The position numbers were made by a program, and so were the translations under genes. DNA of 2,799 nt, from the NCBI RefSeq assembly GCF_003334355.1, contig NZ_QOWP01000071.1; one strand, given 5' to 3'. Source of the DNA: Escherichia coli (GTDB lineage: Bacteria > Pseudomonadota > Gammaproteobacteria > Enterobacterales > Enterobacteriaceae). The first letter of the stretch is position 1, and the number at the start of each line of letters is the position of its first letter. This document shows positions 2,669 through 2,799 of this stretch, piece by piece. The notes under the pieces are model-generated. The model did no database searches, had not been told where the DNA came from, and saw only the letters and a list, made by a program, of their open reading frames with translations.

Positions 2669-2691
2669 GGTAATGACTCCAACTTATTGAT
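2669..2691 (-). repeat. IS1 terminal inverted repeat (IRR)
   Basis: ggtaatgactccaacttattgat, identical to the reverse complement of 55-77. Confidence 0.9.
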
Positions 2692-2799
2692 AGTGTTTTA
2701 TGTTCAGATAATGTCCGATGATTTTGTCATGCAGCTCCACCGATTTTGAGAACGACAGCGACTTCCGTCCCAGCCGTGCCAGGTGCTGCCTCAGATTCA
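2684..2799 (-). CDS. insB: IS1 transposase InsB, C-terminal fragment (variant allele; 5' part outside the window)
   Basis: Minus-strand frame ends ...[16 protein letters not shown] with the stop at 2684-2686; it differs from the left copy by V->I plus one synonymous change. Confidence 0.85.

Follow-up and report, generated by a model that had tools for sequence, protein, structure and literature searches.

The window, by which we mean the whole 2,799-bp stretch of Escherichia coli DNA analysed here, is the reverse complement of an entire short-read draft contig, QOWP01000071.1 (L024; assembly GCA_003334355.1). It contains the native chromosomal segment yjgN'-yjgM-rraB-argI, held between the inward-facing right ends of two IS1 copies in inverted orientation and measuring 2,591 bp from one IS1 end to the other. 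In annotated homologous loci the native E. coli order reads valS-yjgN-yjgM-rraB-argI-yjgL-tabA, and the outer flanks of both IS1 copies are presumably native as well. The features of the window are listed below (position, strand where assigned, description).

1-77, + strand: left IS1, last 77 nt (IS1 nt 692-768), identical to the K-12 IS1A, IS1D and IS1E tails
3-59, + strand: InsB codons 149-167 of the left copy (by translation), with the stop codon at 60-62
55-77: 23-bp right terminal inverted repeat (IRR) of the left copy, facing the central segment
78-86: AGAAAATCG, the 9-bp target duplicated by the left insertion (inner copy)
78-275, - strand: yjgN 5' remnant, 66 codons, DUF898 family, reading through into IS1 (translation and homologous-locus annotation)
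468-971, + strand: yjgM, GNAT N-acetyltransferase, intact (open reading frame and annotation)
1017-1433, - strand: rraB, RNase E inhibitor, intact (open reading frame and annotation)
1595-2599, + strand: argI, ornithine carbamoyltransferase, intact (open reading frame and native context)
2660-2668: GCAGTGATA, 9-bp target of the right insertion (inner copy, presumed)
2669-2799, - strand: right IS1, last 131 nt (IS1 nt 638-768), identical to the K-12 IS1A tail at 129 of 131 positions
2669-2691: IRR of the right copy, facing the central segment; InsB stop codon at 2684-2686
2714, - strand: variant at IS1 nt 723, G>A (GGG>GGA), synonymous at InsB G158; left copy G at position 32
2722, - strand: variant at IS1 nt 715, G>A (GTC>ATC), InsB V156I; left copy G at position 24

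The gene given here as argI is named 'argF' by PGAP in other genomes, and its surroundings in the window are those of the argI locus. Fusion proteins that join the yjgN remnant to IS1, 91 or 92 aa in length, are on record with the domain PF05987. Exact searches with these products recovered the contigs L019 and L024, whereas ArgI, which occurs in 11,005 blocks, gave no useful lead. Between the convergent genes yjgM and rraB, positions 973-1006 form a hairpin with a 14-bp stem (AAAATGCCCGCTAG / CTATCGGGCATTTT) flanked by runs of A and T, which looks like a bidirectional intrinsic terminator.

The two IS1 ends and their differences

A repeat search of the window recovered the two IS1 ends as inverted arms (1-77 and 2669-2745) that are 97% complementary over 77 nt. 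Base-by-base comparison found identity at 75 of the 77 bases and exactly two mismatches, at 2714 and 2722, while translation in the InsB frame turned one into a silent change and the other into a replacement of valine by isoleucine; on all of these points the preliminary description, which had read the same two differences in 77 bp with one synonymous change and one V->I change, was correct. Both positions are T on the plus strand of the window and A in the IS1 sense, so that both variants are G>A transitions, carried by the right copy only of the pair. Compared with the IS1A tail, the right copy likewise differs at these two positions and nowhere else through to the window end at 2799, and the left tail is also that of the yjgN-resident IS1 in two other loci (L013 and L022).

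The identity of the arms as IS1 is clear from both their termini and their coding content. Each arm ends in the right terminal inverted repeat GGTAATGACTCCAACTTATTGAT, and the common C-terminus of InsB and InsAB' (...SVELHDK(V/I)...) is encoded up to 15 nt from the end, as expected of IS1; the contig is also annotated with a partial InsB gene of 37 aa (PF03400, DDE_Tnp_IS1). One change is silent (723A), the other conservative (V156I), and the 23-bp terminal repeat includes neither site, so that no effect on transposition or function would be expected.

Insertion sites in yjgN and yjgL

The left junction lies at a position in yjgN that IS1 has entered repeatedly. Insertion-free loci contain AGAAAATCG once, and the same nonamer is found at both ends of a full 768-bp IS1 at this yjgN site in other genomes (L013, L022, L002; strains including E47 and MLI023K1). 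The element occupies exactly this position in L013 and E47, and it sits there in the opposite orientation in MLI023K1. Among complete E. coli genomes the left junction is matched exactly in E47 and D72 only. Altogether, at least four backgrounds, 24-57 bases apart per 2,500, carry a hit at the site; both orientations and different isoforms are represented, the resident elements being IS1A-like at one extreme (2-4 differences) and, in L014, an isoform with 55 differences at the other. The 9-bp site AGAAAATCG in yjgN is a hot spot for recurrent IS1 insertion, a minor point of use for studies of IS1 target choice. Starting 12 nt upstream of this target, the native sequence (L003/L005, around 8484) also reads GGTAAT, which agrees with bases one to six of the IS1 right end.

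Two of the loci with an occupied yjgN site deserve a separate remark. L013 and L014 are identical across yjgM-rraB-argI (0 differences in 2,500 nt) and share the same junction, yet L013 holds an IS1A-like element with 4 differences and L014 the 55-difference isoform, beyond whose left end a sulfatase gene replaces the rest of yjgN. The contrast suggests either that IS1 mediated a rearrangement or that the site was hit independently a second time.

The right IS1 lies 69 bp downstream of the argI stop codon, inside the last codons of yjgL. In the insertion-free loci (L003, L005) the native sequence runs from GCAGTGATA directly into GGTCTATTC, and a 9-bp duplication presumably accompanied the right insertion too. 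The insertion is predicted to cost yjgL its stop codon and to add six residues (VMLPTY) from the IS1 left end. The resulting YjgL::IS1 product (537 aa; G257, S257) was not on record in a search by exact match, which is fragile at a length of 537 aa. As a single piece, the right junction (GCAGTGATA followed by IS1) occurred in 0 of 5,426 complete E. coli genomes, and it was found in the window and in one sister contig (L019) only; no record among the complete E. coli genomes held both junctions together. The predicted outer junctions, where each IS1 copy would meet its far flank, are AGAAAATCG joined to GGTGATGCTGCC and the reverse complement of GGCAGCATCACC joined to GCAGTGATAGGTCT.

Isoform assignment and contig ends

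For a reference, the six annotated IS1 copies of K-12 MG1655 (IS1A-IS1F) were extracted and compared. Measured against IS1A, IS1E is identical, IS1B and IS1C are the same sequence with 9 differences, IS1D has 9 differences and IS1F has 73, a table that agrees with the K-12 IS1 pattern in PMC12428005. The K-12 set therefore falls into four sequence types, and copies within one genome can stand a few bases apart, as they do in the window. Of the 768 nt, 9 separate IS1B/C from IS1A/E and 9 separate IS1D from IS1A/E, with one such site (nt 704) inside the 77-nt tail. None of the six copies carries 715A or 723A, unlike the right copy here, and the K-12 copies are compared over 768 bp whereas those of the window are compared over 77-131 nt only.

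Over this short stretch the left tail matches IS1A, IS1D and IS1E exactly and is 1 nt away from IS1B/C, so that it singles out no isoform, and the right tail equals the IS1A tail with 715A and 723A added, a combination that fits no catalogued isoform. The preliminary description had called the two copies different isoforms. Their ends truly differ, but the isoform label goes beyond what 77 nt can bear when the left end fits three isoforms and the right end none.

At nt 715 the right copy resembles the elements that PGAP assigns to the 'IS1SD family', found for example in E. coli ATCC 8739 (L020) and on many plasmids. They share 715A, and with it V156I (...HDKIIGHY...), with the right copy, but have G at nt 723 where the right copy has A. 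The same 715A occurs in an IS1A-like mosaic of strain H8 (L021), and L020 and L021 both have G at nt 723. When the right copy was compared with L020 for IS1SD markers, 715A was present at window 2722; the further IS1SD-specific positions of L020 (nt 262, 265, 281, 393, 396, 444, 597, 609, 612, 615 and 621) all fall outside nt 638-768, the stretch of the right copy that is present. The two backgrounds of 715A differ, for it is found on a 12-difference 'IS1SD family' element in L020 and on an element with 3 differences from IS1A in L021. From this pair it follows that either IS1 isoforms are mosaics or nt 715 mutates recurrently.

How common the two variants are was estimated from the 90-nt IS1 tails of 5,426 complete E. 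coli genomes (about 69,000 IS1 places, about 9,200 records). In this set 715A alone accounts for 195 records, and 723A alone is rare, with about 10. V156I is present in hundreds of IS1 copies. The two variants together gave no full-length exact match in the 5,426 complete genomes and were likewise absent from the plasmid collection and from 10 draft contigs. The right tail is a singleton combination of one fairly common and one rare polymorphism.

The amount of IS1 available for comparison appears to have been set by the assembler. The left IS1 part is exactly 77 nt long, and from the last variant base to the right end of the contig is again exactly 77 nt (2722 + 77 = 2799), which makes the right IS1 part 54 + 77 = 131 nt. 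These lengths suggest that both contig ends are the edge of a de Bruijn graph with k=77: on the left the terminal 77-mer would be shared with other IS1 copies, and on the right the path would remain unique up to the first 77-mer without a copy-specific base. The argument presumes raw de Bruijn graph edges and is confined to the window and those contigs whose ends measure 77 or 131 nt; for the sister contig L019, with end lengths of 145 and 166 nt, no single consistent k explains both. In general, contigs bounded by repeats in such graphs end k nt into the collapsed repeat or k nt past the last copy-specific base, and the window agrees with this throughout. Other draft contigs (L023-type) likewise end 77 nt into IS1, and ten end 131 nt into IS1, with the exact 715A tail in eight and in the remaining two a divergent tail that also encodes V156I.

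The recurrence of 77- and 131-nt ends in other draft assemblies supports the k=77 reading, and with it the variant 77-mers would be unique in the genome. No other IS1 copy in this genome should then carry 715A or 723A, because the contig would otherwise have stopped sooner, at 123 nt or at 77 nt. Both variants thus look private to the right copy, and would not have been inherited from a second isoform family that still resides in the genome. Since the IS1 bodies are collapsed in the short-read assembly, a full-length comparison of the copies is impossible from it. It is the assembler k-mer, and not biology, that confines the comparison to 77 nt and places the right end where it is, and differences between IS ends in contigs of this kind cannot date or explain an arrangement without long reads.

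Origin and age of the inverted pair

An independent assembly of the same arrangement was found in the contig NRWB01000195.1 (L019; GCA_003293365.1; 2,902 bp), in which both junctions lie at the same nucleotides as in the window and the central 2,591 bp show 1 mismatch. This sole central difference, at window 1077, is A in the window and G in L019 and is synonymous in rraB; the insertion-free loci L003 and L005 also have G there, so the A is derived in the lineage of the window. The right IS1 copy of L019 carries 723A but has G at 715. The variant at 2714 is therefore real, being reproduced in an independent assembly, and the lack of 715A in L019 means that, of the two differences, at least one was gained or erased once the two IS1 copies were already in place. 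The 715A state may have been gained in the lineage of the window, through mutation or through conversion by an unseen donor; alternatively, the sister lineage may have lost it through conversion to the majority type. All four combinations at nt 715 and nt 723 exist, which requires either recurrent mutation or recombination. With one difference younger than the arrangement, or erased after it, the differences are no clean record of where the two copies came from.

The account towards which we lean, and which we think fairly probable, is that of a native segment flanked by two inverted IS1 copies, whose differences are micro-heterogeneity of the right copy and are mute on age or isoform families. 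One IS1 would have settled in the yjgN hot spot and the other in the last codons of yjgL, leaving the native segment between them, and the two changes would be ordinary IS1 micro-heterogeneity, due either to point mutation or to recombination over a short patch with a further IS1 copy. The pair is explained most simply by two independent insertions, and the second copy presumably inserted separately and does not derive from the first. A limit of the account is that 2722 is read from a single assembly. The origin of 715A carries a cost in either form: if 715A arose de novo, a known polymorphic site was struck by coincidence, and if it came by conversion, the donor is not visible in the genome.

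How the non-identity of the ends bears on age is a separate question. The preliminary description had argued that non-identical ends speak against a very recent duplication of one element. We grant this mild weight, but it says little about origin or age when one of the differences changed after the arrangement had formed. Its further suggestion that the arrangement may be old does not survive comparison with insertion-free relatives: the closest such loci (L003, L005) are separated from the window by only 3-5 bases per 2,500, and the right junction occurs in none of the 5,426 complete genomes.

Several other histories of the pair were weighed. In one, which we consider rather unlikely, the right copy stems from an independent insertion of a different, IS1SD-like isoform whose donor was not the IS1A-like left copy, with 723A as an additional private change and with 715A lost from the sister by conversion. 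The base at nt 715 is that of the PGAP 'IS1SD family' elements, 715A is common on plasmids that may have served as a donor since lost, the mosaic in L021 has placed 715A on an IS1A-like backbone, and in other genomes the left insertion occurs alone, so that the two insertions are in principle separable. Against this, the other IS1SD markers (nt 597-621) lie outside the available 131 nt, the lack of 715A in L019 calls for an extra conversion with an endpoint inside 8 bp, and the contig end 77 nt past 715A would imply that the genome has no second 715A copy, although replicative transposition should leave the donor in place (PMC12428005). Simple error stands lower still. That one or both differences are faults of sequencing or assembly, the copies being identical over 77 nt, gains something from the occurrence of 2722 in one assembly only, L019 lacking it, and from the error-prone nature of contig ends inside repeats. 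It seems very improbable to us all the same, given that 2714 was reproduced independently, that the base at 2722 is one known as a natural polymorphism, something a random error would hardly reproduce, and that an error path is normally clipped rather than extended by 77 nt. Moreover, both sites lie at most 54 nt from the IS1 end, and every 77-mer that links them to the unique flank should come from junction-spanning reads.

A further possibility is that one copy made the other by duplicative inversion, from the yjgN copy to the site downstream of argI or in the reverse direction, with the differences acquired later. In the Shapiro model, duplicative inversion yields inverted copies with like ends inward. 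The window is built in this way, as IS1(L>R)-segment-IS1(R'<L') with the right ends facing each other, and so shares with duplicative inversion by IS1 and IS26 the two inverted copies whose like ends face the bracketed segment. The same mechanism is reportedly documented for IS26. IS1 has been reported to transpose replicatively within the chromosome (PMC12428005). The sister contig shows that the right tail changes within the lineage, and both variants appear private to the right copy. Half of all independent insertions would also be inverted, however, and yjgN is a hot spot that is hit independently. Duplicative inversion further predicts copies that are identical at the outset, which those of the window are not, and an inverted segment, whose orientation is unreadable from a short-read contig. 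Two substitutions in 77 nt are also many for the time available, with 1 per 2,591 between the sisters and 3-5 per 2,500 to the relatives; by a rough estimate from the flanking divergence, about 0.1-0.2 substitutions would be expected in the compared tails where 2 were observed. We therefore hold this origin to be improbable. When the products of Shapiro-type transposition were derived on paper, separate insertions and duplicative inversion gave the same four junctions and differed only in long-range orientation, so that short-read contigs cannot separate them and the sequence differences between the copies are all that bears on the choice.

The presence of an ornithine carbamoyltransferase gene between two IS1 copies brings to mind the composite transposons, and the K-12 argF gene is thought to have moved in this manner. 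Inverted IS1 pairs can form transposons, as in Tn1681. Were IS1-argI-rraB-yjgM-IS1 such a unit, moved as a whole, its ends would reflect a history elsewhere; the two copies do bracket a 2.6-kb segment with the gene in question, and the K-12 paralogue argF lies between IS1B and IS1C. Yet the inner gene order is exactly native, including the truncated yjgN, the left junction is in other genomes a simple insertion with its own 9-bp duplication, identity of the central DNA with insertion-free E. coli loci reaches 99.8%, and there is no sign of a second copy or of a non-native location. We give this history almost no credence. A transposed composite element of the Tn9 or Tn1681 kind was rejected as a class for the window, with its native gene order and its simple-insertion left junction.

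In the K-12 argF region (L026) an ornithine carbamoyltransferase gene lies between two IS1 copies, as argI does here, but argF is an extra paralogue, and its flanking IS1B and IS1C are identical, in direct orientation and 10.7 kb apart in the CP4-6 prophage region. In the window the IS1 copies are inverted, non-identical and 2.6 kb apart around the native argI at what is presumably its native locus. The parallel between argI and argF is probably coincidental.

Micro-heterogeneity among the IS1 copies of one genome has been known since the early 1980s and is a familiar trait of enterobacterial genomes. Small-scale variation of this kind is therefore nothing new, and is biologically of little weight in itself. 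A bolder proposal, on which we would not place much reliance, is that the IS1 downstream of argI and an IS1 of another type swapped a patch shorter than 10 bp and, separately, that argI-rraB-yjgM is an incipient composite transposon. If the exchange did take place, then 715A/G on a constant 723A in near-identical sisters would make short-patch gene conversion between dispersed IS copies directly observable. If the second part were true, the inverted pair would be a snapshot of how an extra copy of the argF type could be mobilised.
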